A model generated the notes under the pieces. The model was given only the letters and a program-made list of their open reading frames with translations, had not been told where the DNA came from and searched no databases. DNA of 64,000 nt from Deltaproteobacteria bacterium (GTDB lineage: Bacteria; Myxococcota_A; UBA9042): assembly GCA_016875335.1 (NCBI GenBank), contig VGRO01000001.1, positions 51,724 through 115,723 on the forward strand, in the 5' to 3' direction. Of this stretch, positions 1 through 63,207 are shown in pieces (position 1 is the stretch's first letter; the number at the start of each line of letters is the position of its first letter). The position numbers were made by a program, and so were the translations under genes.

Positions 1-507
1 AGCGGCTACGCCGACCGGTGCGGCGAGTCCATCACCCCAAGCCGGGCCGGCGCTGGCGAGGCCCGCTGGAATGCACCCGCCGCTGCCGTGGGCGACCGTG
101 CCGGCGAGGCAAGCCGCCGCTCGTTCCTGGGCTGTGCAGGTCGCGTTTGCCGGCAGGCAGTCCGCATCGCCCGCGTCACAGGAGTCTCCCGCCTCGGTCC
201 GCCACACCAGGCACCAGCGCGGCACGCACTGCTCTGGGTGTTCGACCGCCTGCGATGCGCATTCTGGCGGTCCGACCGCCGCGCACGCCGCGGAAGGCCC
301 GTCCCAAAACCTCCCGGTCGGGCAGCAGCCTCCGCCGGGCATTCTGGCGACCTCGGCACATGTCACGTTGGCCTGCGCCTCGCCGTCGACGGACGCGTCG
401 CTGCGTCCGCCAGGGGCGGCTTCGCCGCTGCACGCCGTGGCGGCGACCGTGCACCATGCAGGCAGCGACCGCTCGATGGAATTTCGCATGGCAGAGACGC
501 GTCGCAT
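1..507 (-). CDS. Cys-rich lipoprotein-like protein, 5' part only (runs off window start); paralog of 26880-29825
   Basis: Not in the ORF track. Manual translation gives MRRVSAMRNSIERSLPAWCTVAATACSG...MPGGGCCPTG...CAAVGPPECAS...CVPRWCL, matching MPEGGCCPAG...CTAVGPPECAS...CHPRWCL of the 981-aa ORF. Alternative start at 489. Confidence 0.8.
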   Translation of the reverse strand, partial: MRRVSAMRNSIERSLPAWCTVAATACSGEAAPGGRSDASVDGEAQANVTCAEVARMPGGGCCPTGRFWDGPSAACAAVGPPECASQAVEHPEQCVPRWCLVWRTEAGDSCDAGDADCLPANATCTAQERAAACLAGTVAHGSGGCIPAGLASAGPAWGDGLAAPVGVAA

Positions 508-604
508 GGTGGCAGGGGACCTGCATCGCCCGGCGTTGTCAAGCGCGCGCGGCACGCGTTTTGCACTCCACGATCGACATCGTCCGACTTTTCGAAACAA
601 AACC

Positions 605-701
605 ATGGATCTGAACAATGGGGGGGGGCGATCGCGGGCCACGAGGATTCGCACTCGACAGGAATCTCCAGTAAATCCATGGATCTGAACAATGGGGGGG
701 G
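605..701 (+). repeat. Dispersed CTGAACAAT-polyG repeat, 2 direct copies (605-628, 679-701)
   Basis: ATGGATCTGAACAAT followed by G9 and G8, between divergent genes. Confidence 0.95.
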
Positions 702-51616: not shown

Positions 51617-53308
51617 ATGGACAATCGCGACCAGGAGGCTCCCGCCGACGGCGCCGCAGACGATCCCGGCCCGGACGACCCTGCGGCCATGTTCGAGATA
51701 CCGCCGCCCGGGGACCCAGAAGACCGCAGTTTTTTCGATGACGACGGACCGCCCGAGCCGGCGCCGCCCGAGGCGGAAGACGTGCCGGCCCACATGGATT
51801 TTCATGATTTCGTGGGCCCTGGCGCGGCCGACGCACCCGCGCATCCGCCCGATCCGCACGCGGTCCCCACCCGCCTCGGCCCCGTGGTCGCGCATGTGGT
51901 GCAGTCGGCGCCCCCCCGCCACCGCCACGGCCATCCTGCCGCCGCCGGTCCCATCGACGTGGTGCCGCCGGCCGACCTCTCGGCGGAGCGCGCCATTCTG
52001 GCTGCGGCGTTGAGCGACCCGGCGGCCCTGGCCTTGGCCCAAAGTGCCATGCGCGCGAACGACCTGTATGACCACCGACACCGCGTCTTGTTCGAGGCGA
52101 TGCGCAACCTCGCGACCCGCAGCGAAATCATCGACCCCCTCAACGTCGAGGCCGAGGCGCGGCGCCTGGGCCACGGCGACATCGTGACGCTGCAGTACCT
52201 GCTCGACCTGGCGTTCGTGCCCGGCAGCACCCTTGCCGTCGAGGGCTACGCGCGCCGCGTCGCCAAACTGTCAGTCATCCGCAAACTGCTCGACGTCACC
52301 CACAAGCTGCAAGTGGAGGGCTATGGCAAGAGCCTCGACCCCGACGCATTCCTCGATGCCGCCGACCGGCACTTTCGCGACGCCATGGATGCTGCGGTGC
52401 GCGGCGGCCCTGAGCGTGTGATGGGCATCGTCACCGAGGTCTTCAACGCCATCGTCGAGGCGGCGCAAGCCGGCGGCGCCATCCTGGGTACCTGCTCGGG
52501 ATTCCGCGACATCGACCGCATGCACCTGGGTCTGCACGCGACCGACCTCATCGTGCTCGCGGCGCGGCCCGCCATGGGCAAGAGCGCATTCGCGCTCAAC
52601 CTCGCCTACAACGTGGCGCGCCAACAACGGCGCAAAGCCCTCGACCAGCGGTGCCGGGTGGTGGTGTTCTCCCTCGAGATGGGCAAGCAACAGCTGGTCC
52701 AGCGCATGCTGAGCGCGCGGTCCGGCGTCGAACTGACCAGCCTGCGCAAGGGCGAACTCAGCCCGCAGGACGAAAGCAGCCTGCGCGAAGCCGCCGCTGA
52801 ACTTGGCGAACTCGAACTGTACATCGACGACACCGCGGGCCTGACGCCGCACGACATCCGCGCCCGCTGCAAACTCGTCGCCATGAACGGACCCATGGAC
52901 CTGGTTGTCGTCGACTACCTGCAACTGATGCGCGGCACCGGCGGCGACCGTCAGAGCACCGAGAACGCCATCGCCGAGTGCTCGCAATCGCTCAAGGGCC
53001 TGGCCAAGGAACTGCGCTGCACAGTGCTCGCTCTGTCGCAGCTGAACCGCGAGGTCGAAAACCGGTCGGGCCGCAAGCCGCAGATGAGCGACCTGCGCGG
53101 TTCCGGGTCCATCGAACAGGACGCCGACATCATCTGGTTCATCCATCGCGAGCACTACTACGACCCGACCAAGGACGAGCACCTCGCCGAGCTCATCGTG
53201 GCAAAGCACCGCGCTGGCGCCGTCGGCTCGGTGAGCCTGTACTTTGACGGGCGGCTGACCAAGTTCGGCACCTACGATGATCGCGTCAACGACAGCTACG
53301 TGGGTTGA
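51617..53308 (+). CDS. dnaB: Replicative DNA helicase with long low-complexity N-terminal extension
   Basis: AERAIL, ARPAMGKS, FSLEM, VVDYLQLM, LSQLNR, SGSIEQDAD. Confidence 0.95.
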   Translation: MDNRDQEAPADGAADDPGPDDPAAMFEIPPPGDPEDRSFFDDDGPPEPAPPEAEDVPAHMDFHDFVGPGAADAPAHPPDPHAVPTRLGPVVAHVVQSAPPRHRHGHPAAAGPIDVVPPADLSAERAILAAALSDPAALALAQSAMRANDLYDHRHRVLFEAMRNLATRSEIIDPLNVEAEARRLGHGDIVTLQYLLDLAFVPGSTLAVEGYARRVAKLSVIRKLLDVTHKLQVEGYGKSLDPDAFLDAADRHFRDAMDAAVRGGPERVMGIVTEVFNAIVEAAQAGGAILGTCSGFRDIDRMHLGLHATDLIVLAARPAMGKSAFALNLAYNVARQQRRKALDQRCRVVVFSLEMGKQQLVQRMLSARSGVELTSLRKGELSPQDESSLREAAAELGELELYIDDTAGLTPHDIRARCKLVAMNGPMDLVVVDYLQLMRGTGGDRQSTENAIAECSQSLKGLAKELRCTVLALSQLNREVENRSGRKPQMSDLRGSGSIEQDADIIWFIHREHYYDPTKDEHLAELIVAKHRAGAVGSVSLYFDGRLTKFGTYDDRVNDSYVG

Positions 53309-53313
53309 ACGGA

Positions 53314-53674
53314 CCCCATTGTTCAGGCCCGTGAATTCGCAGGGGTTGAACGCCCCCCCCATTGTTCAGGTCCATGAATTCGCAGGAACTGTGAGGCCAG
53401 CGAGTCCGCATCTTGATCGGACAGCGGCCGGCTGATCGGTGGCGCCAATGCTCCCGCCGTACGCAGATTTAGAAAGCGTAGTAATTACAATGATCTGAAC
53501 AGAGGGGGGGCATGCTGCACGCATGATACCCCCCATTGTTCAGGTCCCTGAAAACACGAAGGTATCCTCGACGGCCGCGAGCGCCGCCTCGTGGCGACCT
53601 GTGCCGCTGTCCCGGCAACGAGCGCGAGCGGCACAAAACCGGCGCGAAATCATGGATCTGAACAATGGGGGGGG
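53314..53674. repeat. Dispersed repeat, 5 copies (53314-53332 -, 53353-53375 -, 53489-53510 +, 53529-53549 -, 53652-53674 +)
   Basis: CTGAACA(AT/GA)-G4..8 motifs between convergent dnaB and 53650-54222. Confidence 0.95.
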
Positions 53675-54222
53675 AGTGGCCGCCAGCGCTGCAGTACGAA
53701 CCACGACCCCGTGGGCCAGTGGCGCCCAGCTACCTCGACCAGGGAGACTCCGAGCAGTAGCGTCGGATCGTTCGGCCGCAAAGCTACCAGTGGGTCGCGC
53801 ACCAGGCGGGTCGGGTCGACCGCGGCGTTGCGCGGGTGGACGTAGTCGAGCATCACGCCAGGACCGCAGGGTCGGCGCAGGCGCGCGCGGGTGCGCTGCC
53901 ATTCGTCGAGCTGCGTGACGTGGAAGTGGCCAAACTCCCATGGCTTGCCAGCCCGGCTGCGTAGCACGAGTTGGGCGTCGGCTTCTAGCAAGCGATCGTC
54001 GCCTTGCACGATGCGCACGTTCCAGCCGACCACGCGGTCGCCATCGGCTGCAAATGCCTTGACAAATACCGACCACGTCAACCGTTCGACCCAGCGCGGC
54101 AGGCCGAGCGAAATGCCCTGGTACTGCCATCCTGCGAGATCGCCCGGCGCCAGCGCATGACCGGCGGCCAGTGCATCCGCCAGTTGCGGTTTGGACCAAC
54201 TGCGAAACTCGGCCAGATTCAT
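53650..54222 (-). CDS. Hypothetical protein whose C-terminus derives from the dispersed repeat
   Basis: 190 aa, GWNVR, FGHF, RDPLV; ends PPHCSDP-stop within the repeat. Confidence 0.8.
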   Translation of the reverse strand: MNLAEFRSWSKPQLADALAAGHALAPGDLAGWQYQGISLGLPRWVERLTWSVFVKAFAADGDRVVGWNVRIVQGDDRLLEADAQLVLRSRAGKPWEFGHFHVTQLDEWQRTRARLRRPCGPGVMLDYVHPRNAAVDPTRLVRDPLVALRPNDPTLLLGVSLVEVAGRHWPTGSWFVLQRWRPLPPHCSDP

Positions 54223-54243
54223 GGTTCTCCGCGCGCTCGTTCG

Positions 54244-55644
54244 CTACTTGAAGCACCCCGCCAAGAACGTCCACTTGTCGAGCGCCAGGGCCGCCTGAGC
54301 GCGCTGGTCGGCGCCCCATCCCGGCGCGCGGTCCGCGAACACAGCATAGGCGGGCGTGCCGGCAAAGCACCAAAAAAGCAGCCCCGGATCGGTCATCTTG
54401 CCTGCGATGTCCAGGCCCGTCCTGCACTCGGCGAGACGCCCCGCAGCACGCTGTCGCAACACCCACGCAGCCTCGACGTGGCGCTTGAGTCCGGGGTAGC
54501 CGCCCGCGGTCTCTCTTTCGAAACAGCCTGTTGCCCCAGGTGACCCATGTGCCTTGAGCCAGGCCTTGCGGTCGAACGTCACCTGCTCGTGGGCGTGACT
54601 GACCTCTTCGTCCAAGTAGTCCAGACCCGTCGCCGGAGAATGTTGCCACGCACACAGCAGCGCAGCGTTGGCCTCGCAGTTCGGCAGATGCTGGCCACTG
54701 TAGCGGGGATTGCACTCGTTGCTCGCCGGCCACAACACCAGCCGCACACCCCGGCCCGGCTGGTCTGCCGTCCAGCGCCGATACAGAAGCCCCATCTTCT
54801 CCTTGTAGTCGTGGCGGCAGTGCGGGCACGACACGTCGAGCATCTCGACCATCGTCGGCTGGCCGGGCTTGGCCGCCGCGAGCACCAGCGACCCCTCGTC
54901 GGCGGGCAGATCCGAGTTCGGGCCGACAAGCGGCGCCATGCAGCTCTTGGCGGGGCACCTCAACATGACCTCGCCGCGGGCGACGATGAGCGGCTGGTTG
55001 TTCACGCGCTTCTTGTGCAGGCGCTCGGCTTGGGTGGTGAAGTAGAAGTCGGTGCTGACGCTGGCGATGAACCAGAACCCAACGCCCAGCGCCATGGTCG
55101 CGCCAACCTGGGCCTTCCACGCGCTGCCCTGCTGGCGCGCCAAGTCGCGCAGCCGTTCGCCGAAGTGGTTCCACGCCCAGCCCACCACCACACAGAACGC
55201 AGCGTTGGCGGCATGCATGGCCAAGCACAGCGTGCATTTTGTGCCGATCTGCACAAGGCCGATGTACAAGAAGGCCAACGTGCCCAGCAAGTCGATGATT
55301 GCCCACGCAACCAGCAGCGCGAACGCAAATGCTGCCGCCTGGAACGCGCCGGTGGTCATGGTGACCGCAAACGCGATGGCCGTGCCCAGCGCCACCGTCA
55401 TCGTCGCCATGCCCCAGATGGCGACCGGCACCCCCAGGATCTTGCCTTGGTCGCTGGTCAGCGCGCCTTTGCACGAGTCGCCCTGGCCCTTGGCGAGCGC
55501 GGCACATGAACTTGGCACACCGGTGTCCAGCCCGATCGCCAGTTCGTGGTGGCGCTGCGACGCCGACAAGCCCAGTCCGGCGCCCATGCCGGCGATGAGC
55601 ACCAACGCGAAGACCAGCAGGTAGTCCAGCAACCGACCGGTCAC
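54244..55644 (-). CDS. VKOR-family disulfide-formation protein fused to a DsbA-like thioredoxin domain
   Basis: Loop Cys pair (SSC..DSC), LGVPVAIWG, CTLC; then DVSCPHC and GTP. Confidence 0.88.
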   Translation of the reverse strand: MTGRLLDYLLVFALVLIAGMGAGLGLSASQRHHELAIGLDTGVPSSCAALAKGQGDSCKGALTSDQGKILGVPVAIWGMATMTVALGTAIAFAVTMTTGAFQAAAFAFALLVAWAIIDLLGTLAFLYIGLVQIGTKCTLCLAMHAANAAFCVVVGWAWNHFGERLRDLARQQGSAWKAQVGATMALGVGFWFIASVSTDFYFTTQAERLHKKRVNNQPLIVARGEVMLRCPAKSCMAPLVGPNSDLPADEGSLVLAAAKPGQPTMVEMLDVSCPHCRHDYKEKMGLLYRRWTADQPGRGVRLVLWPASNECNPRYSGQHLPNCEANAALLCAWQHSPATGLDYLDEEVSHAHEQVTFDRKAWLKAHGSPGATGCFERETAGGYPGLKRHVEAAWVLRQRAAGRLAECRTGLDIAGKMTDPGLLFWCFAGTPAYAVFADRAPGWGADQRAQAALALDKWTFLAGCFK

Positions 55645-56771
55645 GGCGTCTCCAGGCAGGTCAGAAGTTGCTTGACGCGGTTCGGGCATTCTTCGCGGGC
55701 GACCAGAAAGCCCAGCGCTTGCTGGCAGTTGGCGTGCGACTTTCCGTAGCGTTCGCAAATTTGCCGGGCGACATTGGGCAACTGGCGGCTGCACGCGGTC
55801 AACGGCTGGCGGTCGAGCATGGCGCGCGTCAGTTTGCTGTCTTCGGCCGGCAGCGAAACCGCGGCAGCCAACACCAGCCCGGCGGCGGCGGCCACGGCGA
55901 ACCCCAAATCCATCGCCGATCGGCCCCGCGGCTGCGGCAACGCTTGACCCAGGCCGAGCAGCGACAGCAGTTCGGCGATGTGCGCCGGGCGACTGCGCGG
56001 ATCGCTGTCGAGCGCGCGCCGCAAGGGTTCGGCCACTGTGGGCCAGCGCGCCACCAACCCCCATGCCGCCTGGGCGCGATCATCGCGGATCTGCGGCGGC
56101 GGTATGCCGCGGGCGATGCGGGCCGCCGCGGGATCCTCGTCGTTCCACGGCGTGATGCCGGTCAACGTGAAATACGCCAGCAGCGCCAACCGGAACACGT
56201 CGGTGCGCGCGTCGACCAGGCCTCCGCCCAGTTGCTCGGCCGCCATCCAGCGGGCGCGCGGCCCACCCACCACAGGCGCGGATCGGGCGAAATCCGTGAC
56301 TTTGACGGTCAGACGGCCGTCGGGCGACAGGTCGACCCACACGCTCTCGGCCGTGAGCGTGGCATGCGCCACACCCGCAAGGTGCGCGGCCTGAATCGCG
56401 TCGCCGACGGTGCGAATGACCGTTTGGGTCACCAGGTCCCAGCCGCGCGCCGCGAGGTAGCCGTGGCGTTGCTGGCCGATGCGCACGATCTCGTCCCAGC
56501 GGCGGCCCGACGGACGCTCAAAGACCAGGTGCAGGGCGCCGTCCGGCCCCGACCAGAGCCCCAAGGGTCGCACCACCGCCGGGTGCGCCACCAACCGAGT
56601 CGCCTGCAACTCGGTCTGCAACCACAGCGCCGCCGACTGCGGGTCGATGGGCACCGGGTAGCTCTTGGCCAGCGCCTGCAGTCCGTCACAGCGCGCGGGC
56701 GTCCACACCTGCGGGCCGCTGCAGGGAAGGGGCGCGCCACTGAGCACCACCCGGCCGTTTTCCAGCATCAT
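55641..56771 (-). CDS. Membrane-anchored Ser/Thr kinase-like protein (probable pseudokinase)
   Basis: HPAVV, AHATLTAESV (for HRDLKPxN), DFA, WMAAEQ, DARTDVF, TGITPW; C-terminal TM and Cys-containing tail. Confidence 0.8.
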   Translation of the reverse strand: MMLENGRVVLSGAPLPCSGPQVWTPARCDGLQALAKSYPVPIDPQSAALWLQTELQATRLVAHPAVVRPLGLWSGPDGALHLVFERPSGRRWDEIVRIGQQRHGYLAARGWDLVTQTVIRTVGDAIQAAHLAGVAHATLTAESVWVDLSPDGRLTVKVTDFARSAPVVGGPRARWMAAEQLGGGLVDARTDVFRLALLAYFTLTGITPWNDEDPAAARIARGIPPPQIRDDRAQAAWGLVARWPTVAEPLRRALDSDPRSRPAHIAELLSLLGLGQALPQPRGRSAMDLGFAVAAAAGLVLAAAVSLPAEDSKLTRAMLDRQPLTACSRQLPNVARQICERYGKSHANCQQALGFLVAREECPNRVKQLLTCLETP

Positions 56772-59608
56772 GCCGCCCGGCCCCCTCCGAGCAGGCCTTG
56801 CAGCACCCGAATGGCTTTGTGCCGGTCGAGGTTCTGGTTGTGCGGTTGGTGGGTGCAGGTCACGCTGCGGCAGCATTTGGCGCAACTGGCCTGGCAGTCG
56901 CAACTGCCCAGGATTTCCAGCGCTGCATGCAAGATAGCGTGCAGGTCGCGCTCGTCGTCGATGTCGTCCAGGCATCCCAAGCCGTCGGGGTGGCGGTCGA
57001 AGAACACGATGCCCGGCTTGCCGTCGAAGTCCAACTCGTAGCTCACACCCAGAAAGTCCGAGGCGCCCAGGAAGAACCAGTCCAGGCTGTCGCGCAAGAC
57101 GTGGCTCAGCGTGTGCAGCACGGTTTCGTCGGCGCCAGGCAAGCGCAGCACCCACGCCCGCGTGGCGAATCCAGCGACCTCATGGGGTTGCGGCAACATG
57201 TTCTCGTAGCGGCGCTGCAGCGAGTCGGCGTCGCCCGCGGCGCTCGCCGCATTCTGGTCGCGGTCGTAGCCGAAGTTGTGGACGCCGCGATGGGTCAGGT
57301 GCAACTGCACACCGACACGCACCGTTTCCAAGCTGTCGCGGCCGCCAAACCGCGGCCGCTTGATGTCGGGCAGACCGGCGCCATGGCGGGCGAAGCGGAT
57401 GCTGCGCACCGGCGTCGCGGTCCGGTACGACGGTTCTTCTTCGAGCAGACGGACCTGGCCGCGCAGCCCCGCCGCCTTGTCCAGCGCGACCTTGTAGCGC
57501 TTGCCCCCCAACGTGACCCGCGCACCCTCGAAATACTGGAAATCGAGCAGCGACCGCGCCACCGGCCAGCGCTCGCCCGTGCTCGGCGCCAGCAGCTCCG
57601 CAGGGTCGCGCACGCGGTCGCGGTCTGCCTCGACGGCGCCTTGCGCGCGGCACAGCCGCACGATCTCTGGCTTCTTCGGGTCGGCGGGGTTGGGGCGCCA
57701 GCCCTCAAAGCTCGTGAAGATCCGAGAGCCCTCGAGCGTGCCCAACACCCTGGCCGTGACTTCGCGAGAAAACACCCGCTCCAGCCGCGCCGTGTCTACG
57801 AATCCCTTGTCGAGCGCGGCGCGCAGGTGCATCCGGGCCTCGGCCTGCAGGCCCGCAGGGGTCGCTTGGCCGGTCGGCACCGCCGACAGCACCCGCGGAA
57901 AGCGGCTGACGTCGTACCATGCCGGCCACCAGCGCTTGTGGGTGCGGTATTGCCGCAGCAGCAACTGCGACATCGGATCGTCGGCGAAAAGCAGATACTC
58001 GTGGGCAGGCTCGGGCCCTTCGGCGTAGTAGCGGCGGTGACCCAGCACCTGCCAGGCACAGCGCGGGCCGATGCGCGCCAGCAGCACCTCGGCGCTGCCC
58101 TCGGGCTGGGGATCGCCCGGCGGGGGCCACGGCGCCCACGGTTCGCCGACCAATTCGGCAAAGAGGCGCTCGTGTGGCCCTTCGACCTCGGTGACCACCC
58201 GTGCATAGCCATCGCGTACGCCGAGCAGTCCCGCAGTGGCGGTCTTCTTGTGCTGGATCCTGCCCAGTTCGACCACGAAACGCCGCACTGCGCGCGAGGC
58301 CGCCCCCTGGGGATCGTACTCGCCAGCCGTGGGTGCCACCTTGACCTGCGCGGTGGCGATGCGGTCGGCGATTTGCTGCAAGACCGCCGTGCCGAGGTTG
58401 CCCACCAGGAGTACCGCGGGCGGACTGGCGCCGCGCAAAGCGGCGAGCCGATAAACCAAGAACCGGGCGCGCGCCACCGCCGGTCCGTACAACTCCTCGA
58501 CGTCGTCCAGGACCACCAGCTTGCAGCGCTCGATCAGCGGATGGGCGCCCGGATCGGCAGCGTCGTCGAGAAACGCCTGCACGTCGTCGAGCGACGCCAC
58601 CCAGATATCCGCCGGTCGCGGCGGCAGGCCGTCGTCGATCGCCACCGCGGCGCCGGCCGCGATCTTCTCCGTCAACGCCCGCAGTTGCCGCACGGTGGCC
58701 CCGACGCTTTCGCGCTTGGGGGTGACCACTACACAACTGGCGCCGGTCGTCAGGGCCAAGTCGATCGCCCGCACAAGCGCCGCCGTGGTGCGCCCGGTGC
58801 CGACCGGACCCGCAAGCGCCAGCGCCGGCAGCGCAGCCCACTCGTCGATCACCCGCGCCTGGAACGGGTAGAGGTCGAGGCCAAACCGCGGTTCGCCCTT
58901 CTTGCCGGCCTTGCTGCTGCGGTCGATGGCCGGCAGCGTCTCGACCGCCGCCGGGGCCCCCAACCACTGGTGCAGAGCATCGATGCGCTGGGCGAACGGC
59001 AGACGGTCCGGTGGCGCCTCGACGTTGCGCGGCGGCCGCGGTTCCGGCAGCGGTCGGACCGGATGCGTGGAACCGAAAAGCACGCCCAATAGCGCCGCAT
59101 AGCCGAACGCCCACAGCGTGTACTGCGGCACGCCCTTTGCGGGCACGACTGCAAGGTCCATGCCCAAGATCGCCAAGGTCGCAAGGCCGAGGCCAAGCAC
59201 CGCGAACGTGCGCAGCATCCAGCGCAGGCCGACCAGCGGCGAGCCGTCGGGGGCGATGCCAAACGCCACGAAAAGCGGCGGACACGGCGGGTCGCGCGGT
59301 CCCGGCTTGTAGAGCGCGCCGAGTACGAGTCCAAACAGCGGAAACGACGCCACGAGCAGGATGAGCGCCAAGAGCAAAGCGTTGAACGTGCGCGGGAATC
59401 CAAGGATCGCATGGCCACGCACCACGCCGTGGGTCTGGAGCGCCGCGACCATCCCGCCCACAGCGAGCACCGCTGCCGCCGAACCGTACCACAGGGGGCC
59501 GTGGCCCGGGCGCAACCAATCGGGGCCGGATCGCACGGCAAGCAGCCACGCCGTGACCAGCACCCCGACCAGCAAGAGCACGTACACCAGCAGGTCGGTG
59601 TTGCCCAT
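56768..59608 (-). CDS. Membrane-anchored degenerate SF2 helicase with DUF1998 Zn-binding domain (MrfA/YprA/Hrq1-like)
   Basis: About 5 N-terminal TMs; LYPFQ, GPVGTGRT, VVLDDVE; LHTLSHVL..FFD..DGLG..CDCQASCAKC. Confidence 0.82.
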   Translation of the reverse strand: MGNTDLLVYVLLLVGVLVTAWLLAVRSGPDWLRPGHGPLWYGSAAAVLAVGGMVAALQTHGVVRGHAILGFPRTFNALLLALILLVASFPLFGLVLGALYKPGPRDPPCPPLFVAFGIAPDGSPLVGLRWMLRTFAVLGLGLATLAILGMDLAVVPAKGVPQYTLWAFGYAALLGVLFGSTHPVRPLPEPRPPRNVEAPPDRLPFAQRIDALHQWLGAPAAVETLPAIDRSSKAGKKGEPRFGLDLYPFQARVIDEWAALPALALAGPVGTGRTTAALVRAIDLALTTGASCVVVTPKRESVGATVRQLRALTEKIAAGAAVAIDDGLPPRPADIWVASLDDVQAFLDDAADPGAHPLIERCKLVVLDDVEELYGPAVARARFLVYRLAALRGASPPAVLLVGNLGTAVLQQIADRIATAQVKVAPTAGEYDPQGAASRAVRRFVVELGRIQHKKTATAGLLGVRDGYARVVTEVEGPHERLFAELVGEPWAPWPPPGDPQPEGSAEVLLARIGPRCAWQVLGHRRYYAEGPEPAHEYLLFADDPMSQLLLRQYRTHKRWWPAWYDVSRFPRVLSAVPTGQATPAGLQAEARMHLRAALDKGFVDTARLERVFSREVTARVLGTLEGSRIFTSFEGWRPNPADPKKPEIVRLCRAQGAVEADRDRVRDPAELLAPSTGERWPVARSLLDFQYFEGARVTLGGKRYKVALDKAAGLRGQVRLLEEEPSYRTATPVRSIRFARHGAGLPDIKRPRFGGRDSLETVRVGVQLHLTHRGVHNFGYDRDQNAASAAGDADSLQRRYENMLPQPHEVAGFATRAWVLRLPGADETVLHTLSHVLRDSLDWFFLGASDFLGVSYELDFDGKPGIVFFDRHPDGLGCLDDIDDERDLHAILHAALEILGSCDCQASCAKCCRSVTCTHQPHNQNLDRHKAIRVLQGLLGGGRAA

Positions 59609-59611
59609 GCG

Positions 59612-61570
59612 CTACGCCCCGTGCCCGGCCGGCCGGCTGATCGCCGCATAGATGTCGGCCAATCCAGGGTGGACGCGCTGGTGGCCGACCCCAGAGTCCG
59701 GCACGGCGTCTTCCAACTGCTTGGGCAGCACCACGAAGCGCTCGGCGCCGAACTCCAGCGGCAACAGGTCTTGCAGGCGGTCGATCATCTGATCCATGGC
59801 GCGGCGGGCCGGGCCGATCGCGGCCTCGCGCAGTTCGGCGCGGTCGGAGAACGGTACCTGTTCGGCAAAAGCGCCGTACTTGCGAGCGCAGTGGGCAATG
59901 AGCGCCTCGGAGTTCATGAATTCCAGTTGCCAGCGCCAGCTTTCGGCGCGCAGCGCGGCGTCGTAGGGGTCAAACACCTCGGCCGGGTCCACGCGCGATT
60001 CGGCCCGCGCGTAGAACTCCTCGGGCAACTGGATGTCGCTGTCGAACGCGGTGTCGCCGACCAAGCGCATGCGCTCAGGCTTTCTGTGCTGCTGCTGCAA
60101 GTCCAGCAAGGTGTCATGCACCGTGCGCAGCCAGTGCAGTTCGGCCGTGGCGACTTCGACAGCAAAACGCAACATGCGGCCGTGCAAATGGTGGCCGATT
60201 TGCGCGATGTGGTCGCGGATGAGCGCGGACCAGCGGGACCGGTACGCTTGGCGGCATGCGGCTTCGGCGGCCTCCAGGCGCTGGAAGGTGGCCTCGGCGG
60301 CACGCTTGCGGATTGCGGCAACCGCCCAGCCTGCCACCAATGCCGCGACCGCCACGCCGCCACAGGCGACCATCCGCCACGCGCCGAACCCGACCAAGGC
60401 CGGCCACGCACAGGCTGCGACCACGGCAGAGAGCGCAAAAGTCCAGCCGCCAAAAAGGACGCCGCTGTCGTCGAACGTCGCCCGCGCCCGCGCCAAGGCC
60501 CGCGCCGCGTCGCGCACTTCGCCATCGTCGGGTGCCTGCAGCCGCATCGCCATGCGCGGCCCCTGATCCTGGTCGCCGAGCGGCGTCGCGCCTGCGGTGT
60601 CGCGCCAGCGTTCGAGCTGGTCGATGAGCACCGGCAGGGCCGCGAAGCCCGCCCGCTCGAGGTTGTCGTCGCTCCAACGCCGCAACTCGGCCTGCCACTT
60701 GAGCGCCTGTTCGCGCAGGTCGCTGCCGTGGCGGCGCAGCACGTCTTCGAGCCGCGCCGGAAGTTCTTTGAGCGCCAGGTCCGCGCGGCGCTGCACGTCG
60801 GCCTCGCTCGGCAGATCGCCCTCGCCCACGATGCGCCGAGCGATGCCCTCGCCGAGATCTGCGGCGCGGCCCTCGATGGCGGCCTCGACGTCCTGCTCGG
60901 GCGGGGCGGGCGGGTCGGCCAGGTTGGGGCGGGCCGACGAACTGCGCCCCTGCTGCAGCGTTTGCACCATGCGGTCGGCGACCTTGGCGGCCAGCCTGCG
61001 CGCCAGCACCCGCTGCACGATCGGCGCCTGGAAGCGCGCGGCCTGGGTGATGGTGACGCGCACGCCGCCATAGGTCTCGCACCACCGCGCAACGTGCTCG
61101 CGGGCCTGCGGCAGGCGCGCAATGTCCACCAGCAGGCCGAGCAGGTTGGCGGCGGCGCGCTCGCGCTCAGAAAGGGTCAGCACGCGCTGGACCAGGGTGT
61201 GCGGGACGGCGTGCACTGCATGGAGCCCCGCCGCACCGCCTTGGGCCACCTCGGCCTCTTCGGCCAGCACAATGGCGATTCGCGCCCACGGCGCGCGCAC
61301 CGCGGACTCCGGCGGCGTGCGGCCGGCCAGGGCGACAAGGTCCGCCAGTTTGTCGGCCAGCAGAATCTGGACGAAACCGCCCTCGTGCTTGCGGACCGCC
61401 AGCATCGCCCGCTGGTGGGCCAGCAGCTTGTTGCCCCAGTCCGGGTCCTCCAGGCCCGCGAGCACCCACAGGGCCTGGGCGCCCTCGACGGTGCCAGCGC
61501 GGCCCGCGACCTCTTCGACCGCCGGCAGGAGCGCCGGGGCGCTGACGAGCACTTGGACGGGAACGCTCAC
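59612..61570 (-). CDS. Large helical/coiled-coil protein with a central TM hairpin
   Basis: About 650 aa, two hydrophobic segments flanked by amphipathic helices; ends 3 nt before the next gene; start uncertain. Confidence 0.72.
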   Translation of the reverse strand: MSVPVQVLVSAPALLPAVEEVAGRAGTVEGAQALWVLAGLEDPDWGNKLLAHQRAMLAVRKHEGGFVQILLADKLADLVALAGRTPPESAVRAPWARIAIVLAEEAEVAQGGAAGLHAVHAVPHTLVQRVLTLSERERAAANLLGLLVDIARLPQAREHVARWCETYGGVRVTITQAARFQAPIVQRVLARRLAAKVADRMVQTLQQGRSSSARPNLADPPAPPEQDVEAAIEGRAADLGEGIARRIVGEGDLPSEADVQRRADLALKELPARLEDVLRRHGSDLREQALKWQAELRRWSDDNLERAGFAALPVLIDQLERWRDTAGATPLGDQDQGPRMAMRLQAPDDGEVRDAARALARARATFDDSGVLFGGWTFALSAVVAACAWPALVGFGAWRMVACGGVAVAALVAGWAVAAIRKRAAEATFQRLEAAEAACRQAYRSRWSALIRDHIAQIGHHLHGRMLRFAVEVATAELHWLRTVHDTLLDLQQQHRKPERMRLVGDTAFDSDIQLPEEFYARAESRVDPAEVFDPYDAALRAESWRWQLEFMNSEALIAHCARKYGAFAEQVPFSDRAELREAAIGPARRAMDQMIDRLQDLLPLEFGAERFVVLPKQLEDAVPDSGVGHQRVHPGLADIYAAISRPAGHGA

Positions 61571-61755: not shown

Positions 61756-63207
61756 ATGTCCTCCGCCCCAAAATTCTGCGCCGAGTGTGGCGCGCCGCTT
61801 GCCGAAAACGCAAAGTTCTGCGCTGGTTGTGGAAAGCCGGTCGCAACGGCAACCGCCCCAGTGCCGGTGGTTGCGGATGCCGCACCCACCGCAGGCCCTG
61901 CCGCAAAGCCGGGTGCCGCCCAGCCCGTTCCGCCCGCCGACGATCACGACGACGACGGCGAACTTCCGATGCCCAAGGGCCTGGACGACATCGAGAAGCC
62001 GGGAAGGCCACTGCCGGTCGCCGCCATTTCGGTGGGCGCCGTGCTCGCCGTCGTCGTCGGCTTGGTGCTGTTCCTGACCAGCAACCCCGAGCGGCTCGCC
62101 GCCTTCCAATGTCGCGTGCTCGGCCAAGCCGACAAGTGCGAAACCGAGGCGATGAAGCTCAAGAAACTGGAACGCCAAAAGAACGAGGAAGAACAGCAAC
62201 TGATGGTCTCGGTGGTCGCCCAGTTCGACTTGCAGTTTGCGCCCAAAGAGTCGACGTGGGCGACGGTGGTGCAGAAGCGCTACGAAGAGCCTCGCGATGA
62301 TTTCGTCAAGCGCGTGCGCGACAGCGGCCCCGACAACCGCAAGCTCGTCGAGACCAAGTTTGGCGAATACAAGCAGGCTGCCGCCAAGGATGGCCAGATC
62401 AAGGGCGCGATCGCGTTCGTGACCGAGTCCGATTGGACCGCCGCGCACAGTGCTGGCGATGCCAAGCCGGCGCTCATCCCCGAGGATCCGCCGCCGCCGC
62501 CCCCGGCGCCGCCTCCACCCCCGCCGCCTGTGCCGCCGACCGGCCCCATCTCGTGGTGGCCCAAGAAGGACCAGTCGCTGACGCTGCCCATGAGCGTGCA
62601 GAACCTGCCGATGCTCGAAAAGGAGCAGGCCGATGGCAACGGCAAACGCCTGACCGCCGACGACGTCGCCAAGATCATTGCGTTGGAAGAGGCCGGCGGC
62701 GCCAAGTCCAAGGAGGGTGAGGAAGGCAAGCCCGACCCGACCAAGAACGTCAAGACGATTGCCGTCTCGACCTGGGTCTACGAGATTCGGCTGTGGGCCC
62801 CTGGGTACGAGCAGCGCAACATCGTGTTCTACGACGACCCGCTGCCGCCCGACCTGAACAAGAAGAAACTCGAAGCCGACAAGTGGACGCTGCGCAAGTT
62901 CAAGCGCATGCCCGACGGAAAGCTGGTCATCGACAACGCGGGGTTCGACCTGCTGCCCTTCCCGCGCACCATCCAGACCCGTTACCTCGTGGTGCTCAAG
63001 GAGCTGCACTGTCTCAAGCTGACCAAGGAGTACGAGGCCAAGAGCCAGCAGGGCAAGGTCGACGCCGAGCAGCTCATCTGGGACCAGAAGGCCTTTACCA
63101 AAGAAGAGCAGGAGGTTGCCAAGAAGAACGACGGCGACCCGGCCTTCGAGGCCCTCAAGGCCGAGGCCATCAAGCAGGTCAAATGCGAGTTGGTGTTGCC
63201 GCAATAG
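61756..63207 (+). CDS. Double zinc-ribbon, single-TM protein with poly-Pro insert
   Basis: FCAECG..KFCAGCG, one TM, PPPPPPAPPPPPPP; GAGGGA RBS. Confidence 0.88.
   Translation: MSSAPKFCAECGAPLAENAKFCAGCGKPVATATAPVPVVADAAPTAGPAAKPGAAQPVPPADDHDDDGELPMPKGLDDIEKPGRPLPVAAISVGAVLAVVVGLVLFLTSNPERLAAFQCRVLGQADKCETEAMKLKKLERQKNEEEQQLMVSVVAQFDLQFAPKESTWATVVQKRYEEPRDDFVKRVRDSGPDNRKLVETKFGEYKQAAAKDGQIKGAIAFVTESDWTAAHSAGDAKPALIPEDPPPPPPAPPPPPPPVPPTGPISWWPKKDQSLTLPMSVQNLPMLEKEQADGNGKRLTADDVAKIIALEEAGGAKSKEGEEGKPDPTKNVKTIAVSTWVYEIRLWAPGYEQRNIVFYDDPLPPDLNKKKLEADKWTLRKFKRMPDGKLVIDNAGFDLLPFPRTIQTRYLVVLKELHCLKLTKEYEAKSQQGKVDAEQLIWDQKAFTKEEQEVAKKNDGDPAFEALKAEAIKQVKCELVLPQ

Follow-up and report, generated by a model that had tools for sequence, protein, structure and literature searches.

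Results

The locus

The window analysed here is a stretch of 64,000 nucleotides (nt) of contig VGRO01000001.1 (positions 51,724 to 115,723, forward strand; assembly GCA_016875335.1) from a bacterium of the Myxococcota whose genome we denote G000, with C82, C104, C112, C393 and C405 standing for other contigs of it. On the reverse strand of the window lies a run of closely spaced genes, G1 to G5, which a first-pass annotation had described as a five-gene membrane operon. We report that the first four, to judge from sequence and gene order, form the downstream half of a larger operon of the FtsZl1 (Tubulin_2) class, headed by a gene that we call tubA. The features of the locus are the following.

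G1 (tubB): 59612..61570, reverse strand; 652 amino acids (aa), GTG start; predicted FtsZ/tubulin fold
G2: 56768..59608, reverse strand; 946 aa; membrane-anchored pseudo-helicase of predicted MrfA/DUF1998 fold
G3: 55641..56771, reverse strand; 376 aa; Ser/Thr pseudokinase with one transmembrane (TM) segment and a five-Cys tail
G4: 54244..55644, reverse strand; 466 aa, GTG start; VKOR fused to a DsbA-like domain
G5: 53650..54222, reverse strand; 190 aa; soluble hypothetical protein whose family is independent and widespread
Zinc-ribbon TM gene: 61756..63207, forward strand; Pfam Zn_Ribbon_1; divergent from G1 and not a member of the operon

Re-reading the sequence bore out the five open reading frames, the spacings and the divergent zinc-ribbon gene of the first-pass annotation: a 3-nt gap separates G1 from G2, G2/G3 and G3/G4 overlap by 4 nt, and 21 nt lie between G4 and G5. 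A Pfam scan assigned G2 to DEAD and MZB (DUF1998), G3 to Pkinase and G4 to VKOR, and returned no family for G1 or G5. The G+C content at third codon positions is 0.85-0.87 in G1 to G4 versus 0.74 in G5. A search for sigma-70 promoters found none, and terminator-like sites were no more frequent than chance.

A larger operon and its division

The conserved neighbourhood that an operon would imply in relatives, which the sequence cluster of G2 and the source names of G5 homologues point to as Myxococcota, is there for G1 to G4, whose order is kept in eight genomes (G005, G010, G009, G001, G004, G006, G137 and G328) and in the metagenome loci L051 and L055, the G1 orthologues of G328, L051 and L055 being assigned by position (17-22% identity). 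It is not there for the fifth gene. G5 adjoins G4 on one contig in G000 and G005 only, lies on another contig than G4 in G001, G004, G006 and G010, and belongs to a family with 315 homologues against 12 for G1; it is a local passenger outside the conserved unit, and the five genes cannot be taken as one conserved unit.

Directly upstream of G1 in G001, G004, G006, G009, G137, G171, G328, L051 and L055 stands tubA, which encodes an FtsZ-like GTPase of 1,070-1,140 aa matching Tubulin_2 at E 1e-44 to 1e-50 (four orthologues scanned), with the T1, T4 and T7 residues kept and AGGTGSG present in 8/8 sequences. Where the locus reaches far enough, genes for a TM receptor and for an FHA or PP2C protein stand before tubA. 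At the other end, a Cys-rich gene with weak OmpA matches (E 0.007 and 0.042) follows VKOR in G328, L051, L054 and L055; this family is not found at the window locus and has two homologues elsewhere in G000. Of the marks of FtsZl1-vWA operons, a Tubulin_2 gene with a GGGTG(S/T)G-type loop, a linked Ser/Thr kinase (dead here) and a canonical FtsZ in the same genome (PF00091 match on C104, E 1e-47) are found. We are highly confident that G1 to G4 are half of an FtsZl1 system whose second tubulin is dead; the genes are not the self-contained system that had been supposed but half of an operon of FtsZl1-vWA-kinase-OmpA type.

In G000 the tubA gene, with its receptor and FHA gene, lies on contig C112, where at least 9 kb of other sequence follows, and G1 is preceded by a divergent gene instead of tubA; the separation is not due to an assembly break. 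Three further genomes (G005, G010 and G003) are split in the same way. In a tree of 15 tubA proteins, from which G005 was left out, G000, G003 and G010, all split, group as a single clade with 100/100 support inside the genus, and unsplit operons occupy all the branches around it, a pattern most simply explained by one derived break. The zinc-ribbon gene, which adjoins G1 in G000 and G005 only, stands at the break point, in the place that tubA takes in unsplit relatives.

The division raises the alternative that G1 to G4 (or G1 to G5) have been an independent system or a decaying remnant since the split. The halves do lie apart in four genomes, and three of the four genes lack catalytic motifs. 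Against this, all four split genomes retain both halves; tubA of G000 is 82% identical to the G009 copy and 80-82% identical to unsplit copies; the kinase was already dead in unsplit members of the genus; and dN/dS between the window and L001 is 0.09 for G1, 0.08 for G2, 0.11 for G3 and 0.08 for G4, at a dS of about 0.8. Values near 0.1 indicate that the genes without catalytic motifs encode maintained proteins and are not pseudogenes, and we give the remnant explanation a very slim chance.

The C112 receptor has 462 aa and about ten Cys, and a profile scan found no vWA domain in it. At 33-37% identity, its orthologues in the genus match longer receptors over the C-terminal half of the latter. 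Among linked receptors a vWA domain is weakly matched in G328 (E 0.008) and clear in the distant loci L107, L108 and L095. A second receptor-type gene of G000, 31% identical to the tubA-linked family, lies on C405 (L057:125-1408) next to a long coiled-coil gene, where the contig ends.

G1 is a predicted tubulin-fold protein with its own membrane hairpin

Sequence searches of Pfam, NCBIfam and the PDB returned nothing for G1, and in PADLOC it gave one weak LeoBC row (E 0.059). Its template-free AlphaFold2 model (15 sequences, mean predicted local distance difference test (pLDDT) 83.8) was compared with 48,161 solved chains by VIA-align, and the chains ranked 1-10 are all FtsZ, CetZ, tubulin or PhuZ. 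The top match is FtsZ 2vaw (Z 13.6, root-mean-square deviation (rmsd) 4.2 over 220 aligned residues, with 1..647 of the model placed on 10..316 of the chain); a helical bundle, the best non-tubulin row, reaches Z 9.1. Foldseek was uninformative on the same model, returning long-helix matches alone (alpha-pore-forming toxins and dynamins among them, TM-score 0.15, rmsd >27 A) and missing the tubulin fold. In the model, a Rossmann-like N-domain and the opening strand and helix of the C-domain take up residues 1-209, a helical arm of about 300 residues is inserted in the C-domain between about 209 and 510, and residues 510-647 supply the remaining C-domain strands. The arm carries a TM hairpin, placed by hydropathy at about 369-413.

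The tubulin relationship also emerges from profiles. In distant Myxococcota the gene after tubA is matched by the G1-family profile (probability 98, E 2e-13, 500 columns), and the profile of this distant tubB matches tubA in turn (probability 94-97) over a strand-helix-loop-helix-strand-helix core. Neither GGxG nor GGTG, the T1/T4 GTP motifs, occurs in G1 or its 14 aligned relatives, and among distant tubB sequences a T1 remnant is seen in some rows and T4 in none of those read. We therefore predict, from the model, that G1 is a GTP-dead tubulin-fold protein with its own membrane hairpin, as the first-pass annotation had speculated in calling it a decayed tubulin-like scaffold. Two distant loci (L104 in G046 and L108 in G330) encode tubB proteins of 1,330-1,380 aa with a large insert directly after the first strand-helix.

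G2 has a predicted MrfA fold and has lost helicase motifs

Hydropathy places four to five TM segments at the N-terminus of G2. The AlphaFold2 model of the protein (pLDDT 84.3) finds MrfA (6znp) as its best Foldseek match (E 1.7e-20, 839 columns, TM-score 0.44-0.53), with the whole RecA1-RecA2-WH-OB-Zn architecture present. G2 and all seven aligned TM relatives have lost motifs Ia, II (DExH), III and VI; where DExH, SAT and QxxGRxGR would stand, G2 has DDVE, GNL and QVLGHRRYY. The earlier description of a TM-anchored degenerate DUF1998 helicase thus holds, and G2 may be, on its modelled fold, a non-unwinding DNA-binding or scaffold partner.

Such a protein could instead belong to a membrane-tethered DNA-handling device that anchors the nucleoid or serves DNA uptake or repair; G2 would then still bind ATP and DNA, and the tubulin pair would move DNA as TubZ does for plasmids. 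The MrfA fold would suit this role, as would the Zn cysteines, kept in 20/21 aligned family members including G2, and the Walker A-like GxG[KR], retained in each of the 19 rows covering it and partly retained in G2. However, DExH and motif VI are lost in all nine G2-family rows compared save the canonical control P0057, the genome holds a canonical MrfA-type gene of its own on C393 (the reference for our motif comparison), and the loci read showed no genes for DNA uptake. We regard such a device as improbable.

The longer TM relatives of G2 carry a C-terminal peptidase-like domain after the Zn domain in 4/10 proteins scanned (DUF553, DUF6782 twice and Peptidase_M61, with DUF553 and M61 at or above the cut-off); no effector domain follows the Zn domain in G2 itself. 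The proteins P0042, P0063, P0069 and P0071 are relatives of the DUF1998 helicases that end in transglutaminase-like or metallopeptidase domains, and the helicases of L104 and L108 lack the Zn cysteine pattern. DUF1998 helicases occur in the defence systems DISARM (as DrmB) and Druantia. No partner genes of either system were seen in the loci read and no full-length DrmB or DruE match was obtained for G2, its DruE matches being of Zn-domain length only (E 5e-7).

G3 and G4

G3 matches Pkinase (E 4.9e-9), has one TM segment (285-310, by hydropathy) and ends in a tail with five Cys. It keeps the beta-3 Lys and the alpha-C Glu. Across 11 aligned orthologues and paralogues, the catalytic loop is HAT in G3, HAN or HGN in four other close relatives, and HND in G137, G328, L051, L053, L055 and the C82 paralogue. 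By this alignment the catalytic Asp is lost in this genus only; the loss is recent, yet older than the split, since the dead kinase is also present in the unsplit genomes G001 and G004.

G4 matches VKOR (E 2e-12), with TM segments by hydropathy, and its redox cysteines are intact: loop C47/C58, CTLC C137/C140 and CPHC C273/C276. VKOR-DsbA/thioredoxin fusions of cyanobacterial type are known; the DsbA-like part of G4 has the CPHC, a C-terminal GTP loop and a weak PDB profile match to a DsbA-type protein (E 0.003), and some nine additional Cys lie in the periplasmic part. Both CxxC motifs are lost from the VKOR gene of G137. No DsbB match was found in G000, and with three VKORs in the genome the housekeeping one is probably not G4; its sequence and setting make it a likely dedicated disulfide-forming enzyme, with the G3 tail and the C112 receptor as candidate substrates. 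The picture drawn by the first-pass annotation, of two pseudoenzymes (G2 and a TM pseudokinase with a Cys-containing tail) accompanied by their own disulfide catalyst, is supported, the catalyst as a likely one, and G1 raises the pseudoenzymes to three.

Contig C82 of G000 holds a paralogous module (L017:7340-12225) free of tubulins, with a kinase whose catalytic motifs are intact, a VKOR-DsbA protein and a Cys-rich OmpA-like TM protein; its first gene is possibly PP2C-like, with no Pfam match. The C82-type VKOR paralogue is present in G000, G003, G005, G008 and G010 and was not found in G001, G004, G006 and G009. We considered the C82 kinase as a general replacement for the dead G3 and rejected it, the linked VKOR paralogue not being found in G001 and G004, which also hold the dead kinase.

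Distribution in the phylum and the question of defence

Among 401 genomes of the phylum tubA occurs in 76, ten of which form the top tier. G2 is matched in 7/10 other genomes of the genus and in 12/401 of the phylum, ten of them strongly; a strong match is found in 9/10 top-tier tubA genomes, and in the tenth, G003 (84% complete), G1 runs off the contig end. A profile built from 14 distant tubB proteins detects 51/401 genomes, one of them weakly, and the other 50 all have tubA. Within these 50, tubB follows tubA in at least 43, a TM helicase follows tubB in at least 33, and tubA, tubB and TM helicase stand in order in at least 31. The order counts are lower bounds, many contigs being short, and the helicases were hand-picked: 41 of the 150 matches listed were used (those to E 1e-85 except G220, plus weaker ones taken on position or coverage), with 120 further profile matches outside the list. 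The helicase profile (A8) also catches ordinary MrfA genes (236/401 genomes) and so cannot count the TM form. All these counts include kin genomes that are not independent, and they are descriptive. No tubA relatives were found in viral contigs; plasmids gave three distant N-terminal matches.

The distribution bears on the possibility that the same parts make up an anti-phage conflict system, in which the dead helicase would sense DNA entering at the membrane and tubA/tubB assembly would damage or seal the membrane or activate an effector. Tubulin-vWA neighbourhoods, including two-tubulin firmicute versions, are among the conflict systems predicted by Kaur et al. 2020 (PMC7159879). The patchy occurrence of tubA, the peptidase-like domains of longer G2 relatives, and the DUF1998 helicases of DISARM and Druantia together with the weak DruE matches would all fit. 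But in G000 (92% complete) neither GAP1-M (PF20014; the Corynebacterium glutamicum control was positive) nor DO-GTPase2 (PF19993; DO-GTPase1 was not searched) was found. In PADLOC 0/12 system proteins match at E 0.001, and 68 flanking proteins gave seven matches, four to generic kinases and three short ones to mad3, with no defence-island content. G2 carries no effector, and the system is retained across most of the genus and in 27/34 genomes of one family. We consider a conflict system the less likely reading. An envelope role is favoured over defence by the missing GAP1-M and DO-GTPase2, the empty PADLOC result, the flanks and the retention across the genus.

Flanking sequence

The zinc-ribbon protein (61756-63207) has a single TM segment, a poly-Pro linker and an outer part without a family, and its GC-rich third positions suggest a real gene. 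On the other side of the locus, dnaB (51617-53308) is extended at its N-terminus by a long stretch of about 115 residues, acidic and rich in Pro, and the interval between dnaB and G5 (53314-53677) contains short repeats of about 30 nt in both orientations, whose 13-nt core has 59 copies on 18 contigs and is REP-like.

Discussion

We lean, by a modest degree, towards the view that G1 to G4 are the membrane half of a split FtsZl1 system that serves constitutive envelope remodelling or tethering. The envelope-associated complex that the first-pass annotation had proposed is supported. The gene set, the split, the motif losses and the purifying selection come from sequence and synteny and the folds of G1 and G2 from modelling; the functions we infer from these.

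We give about an even chance to the following course of events. A cue from outside would reach the Cys-rich periplasmic domains of the C112 receptor, of the G3 tail and, in relatives, of the OmpA-like protein, which G4 would keep oxidised. In relatives, assembly would be gated by a kinase/PP2C/FHA switch; in this genus G3 would remain as a scaffold, the relic of such a phospho-switch. The tubA protein would then polymerise with GTP, starting from G1 at the membrane, and G1 would nucleate or cap the filaments and anchor them to the inner membrane. G2, without unwinding, would tie the filament to nucleic acid as a DNA-binding or scaffold partner, and the output would be local remodelling or tethering of the envelope within normal cell biology.

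A bolder proposition, which we advance tentatively and with more doubt than belief, is that a second cytoskeleton is widespread in Myxococcota, in which an active FtsZ-like GTPase is obligately paired with an integral-membrane tubulin that is dead for GTP. The latter would be a built-in nucleator and anchor of a kind undescribed for any tubulin, and the pair would be coupled to a membrane-bound dead helicase that grips DNA. On this proposition the C-terminal tubulin domain of FtsZl1 would be present, split by the coiled-coil arm, and the assembly would survive both gene scattering and kinase death.

Several observations weigh against these proposals. The halves lie on separate contigs here, and co-regulation is accordingly not required. 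Only its fold points to DNA binding by G2. Direct comparison of the G1 and tubA profiles gives no match (probability 0.1), so that the link runs via distant tubB, and no alignment is obtained between the C-terminal parts of tubB and tubA; the split C-domain is consequently modelled for G1 only. The loci of G221, G189, G112 and G199 (L097-L100) have tubA-tubB without an adjacent helicase, and several may hold a minimal two-tubulin version; by their first residues the neighbours there resemble what we take to be lolC/E and moeA. Lastly, the kinase-VKOR pair is confined to a subclade, is absent from the operon in 18/18 distant tubA loci read, and also exists free of tubulins on C82. Set beside the helicase order counts, its absence from the distant loci argues that tubA-tubB-(TM helicase) is the core and kinase-VKOR a subclade addition.

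Two hidden parts of FtsZl1 systems can be named, a membrane-inserted dead tubulin (predicted) and a membrane-anchored dead MrfA helicase. A structural answer, from modelling, may also be offered for the missing FtsZ C-terminal domain of the family, which would be interrupted in G1 by the long helical arm. The natural split shows in turn which genes stay together (G1 to G4) and which are able to leave (tubA, receptor and FHA).

Comparison with known systems

With the MrfA/Hrq1 (DUF1998) helicases, including DISARM DrmB and Druantia DruE, G2 has the whole cytosolic fold and the Zn-binding domain in common, and it differs in its N-terminal TM anchor and in the loss of motifs Ia, II, III and VI. 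G4 shares with the cyanobacterial-type VKOR fusions a VKOR with four redox Cys and a thioredoxin-fold domain with CxxC, but is one of three VKORs in its genome, sits in a specific operon and has the extra periplasmic Cys. BtubA/B, alpha/beta tubulin and gamma-tubulin are tandem tubulin-fold paralogues, as tubA and tubB are, and appear among the structural matches of G1 at Z 10-12. Unlike these, tubB lacks any GTP motif and bears a TM hairpin of its own, carried by the inserted helical arm; a tubA-tubB heterodimer is putative.

The GAP1-N2/DO-GTPase systems of Kaur et al. 2020 (PMC7159879) resemble the present one in having two coiled-coil tubulin genes (in firmicute GAP1-N2 systems), TM vWA proteins, kinase/PP2C links and a membrane-proximal role. 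They are defined, in contrast, by GAP1 and DO-GTPases, which were not found in G000, and are known in Firmicutes and Actinobacteria. The main text has 0 matches to DUF1998 or VKOR; its supplements could list such neighbourhoods.

The closest relatives are the FtsZl1 (Pfam Tubulin_2, PF13809)-vWA operons predicted by Makarova and Koonin 2010 (PMC2875224), which comprise vWA, kinase, OmpA and unnamed membrane proteins; an FtsZ C-terminal domain was not located in the FtsZl1 proteins there, nor, in the parts read, was a downstream protein identified as a tubulin. The family is left aside as divergent in PMC9871819, and we found no tests of FtsZl1 systems in the literature searched. Helicase, DUF1998, VKOR, vitamin K and DEAD do not occur as terms in the supplements of PMC2875224, neither a DUF1998 helicase nor VKOR is mentioned for such a system in the parts read of the three papers, and no description of a set of tubulin, TM DUF1998 protein and VKOR was found in the literature searched. 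The set as a whole belongs to a class predicted in 2010: the window locus is a real, split member of that class, with components not found in print. Common to both, as far as that source goes, are an FtsZ-like GTPase of about 1,100 aa with a coiled coil, a Ser/Thr kinase and large downstream membrane proteins, all beside a canonical FtsZ; the vWA-type receptor and the OmpA-like protein of those operons have putative counterparts in relatives of G000, with vWA weakly or clearly matched and OmpA weakly; the genus studied here differs in lacking the diverged GTPase, in a receptor without vWA domain and in its split operon. A table in the same source gives an arrangement vWA-FtsZl1-B5-B12, in which B12 is a membrane 'zincin fused to Zn finger', and by analogy this is possibly the same layout, unrecognised.

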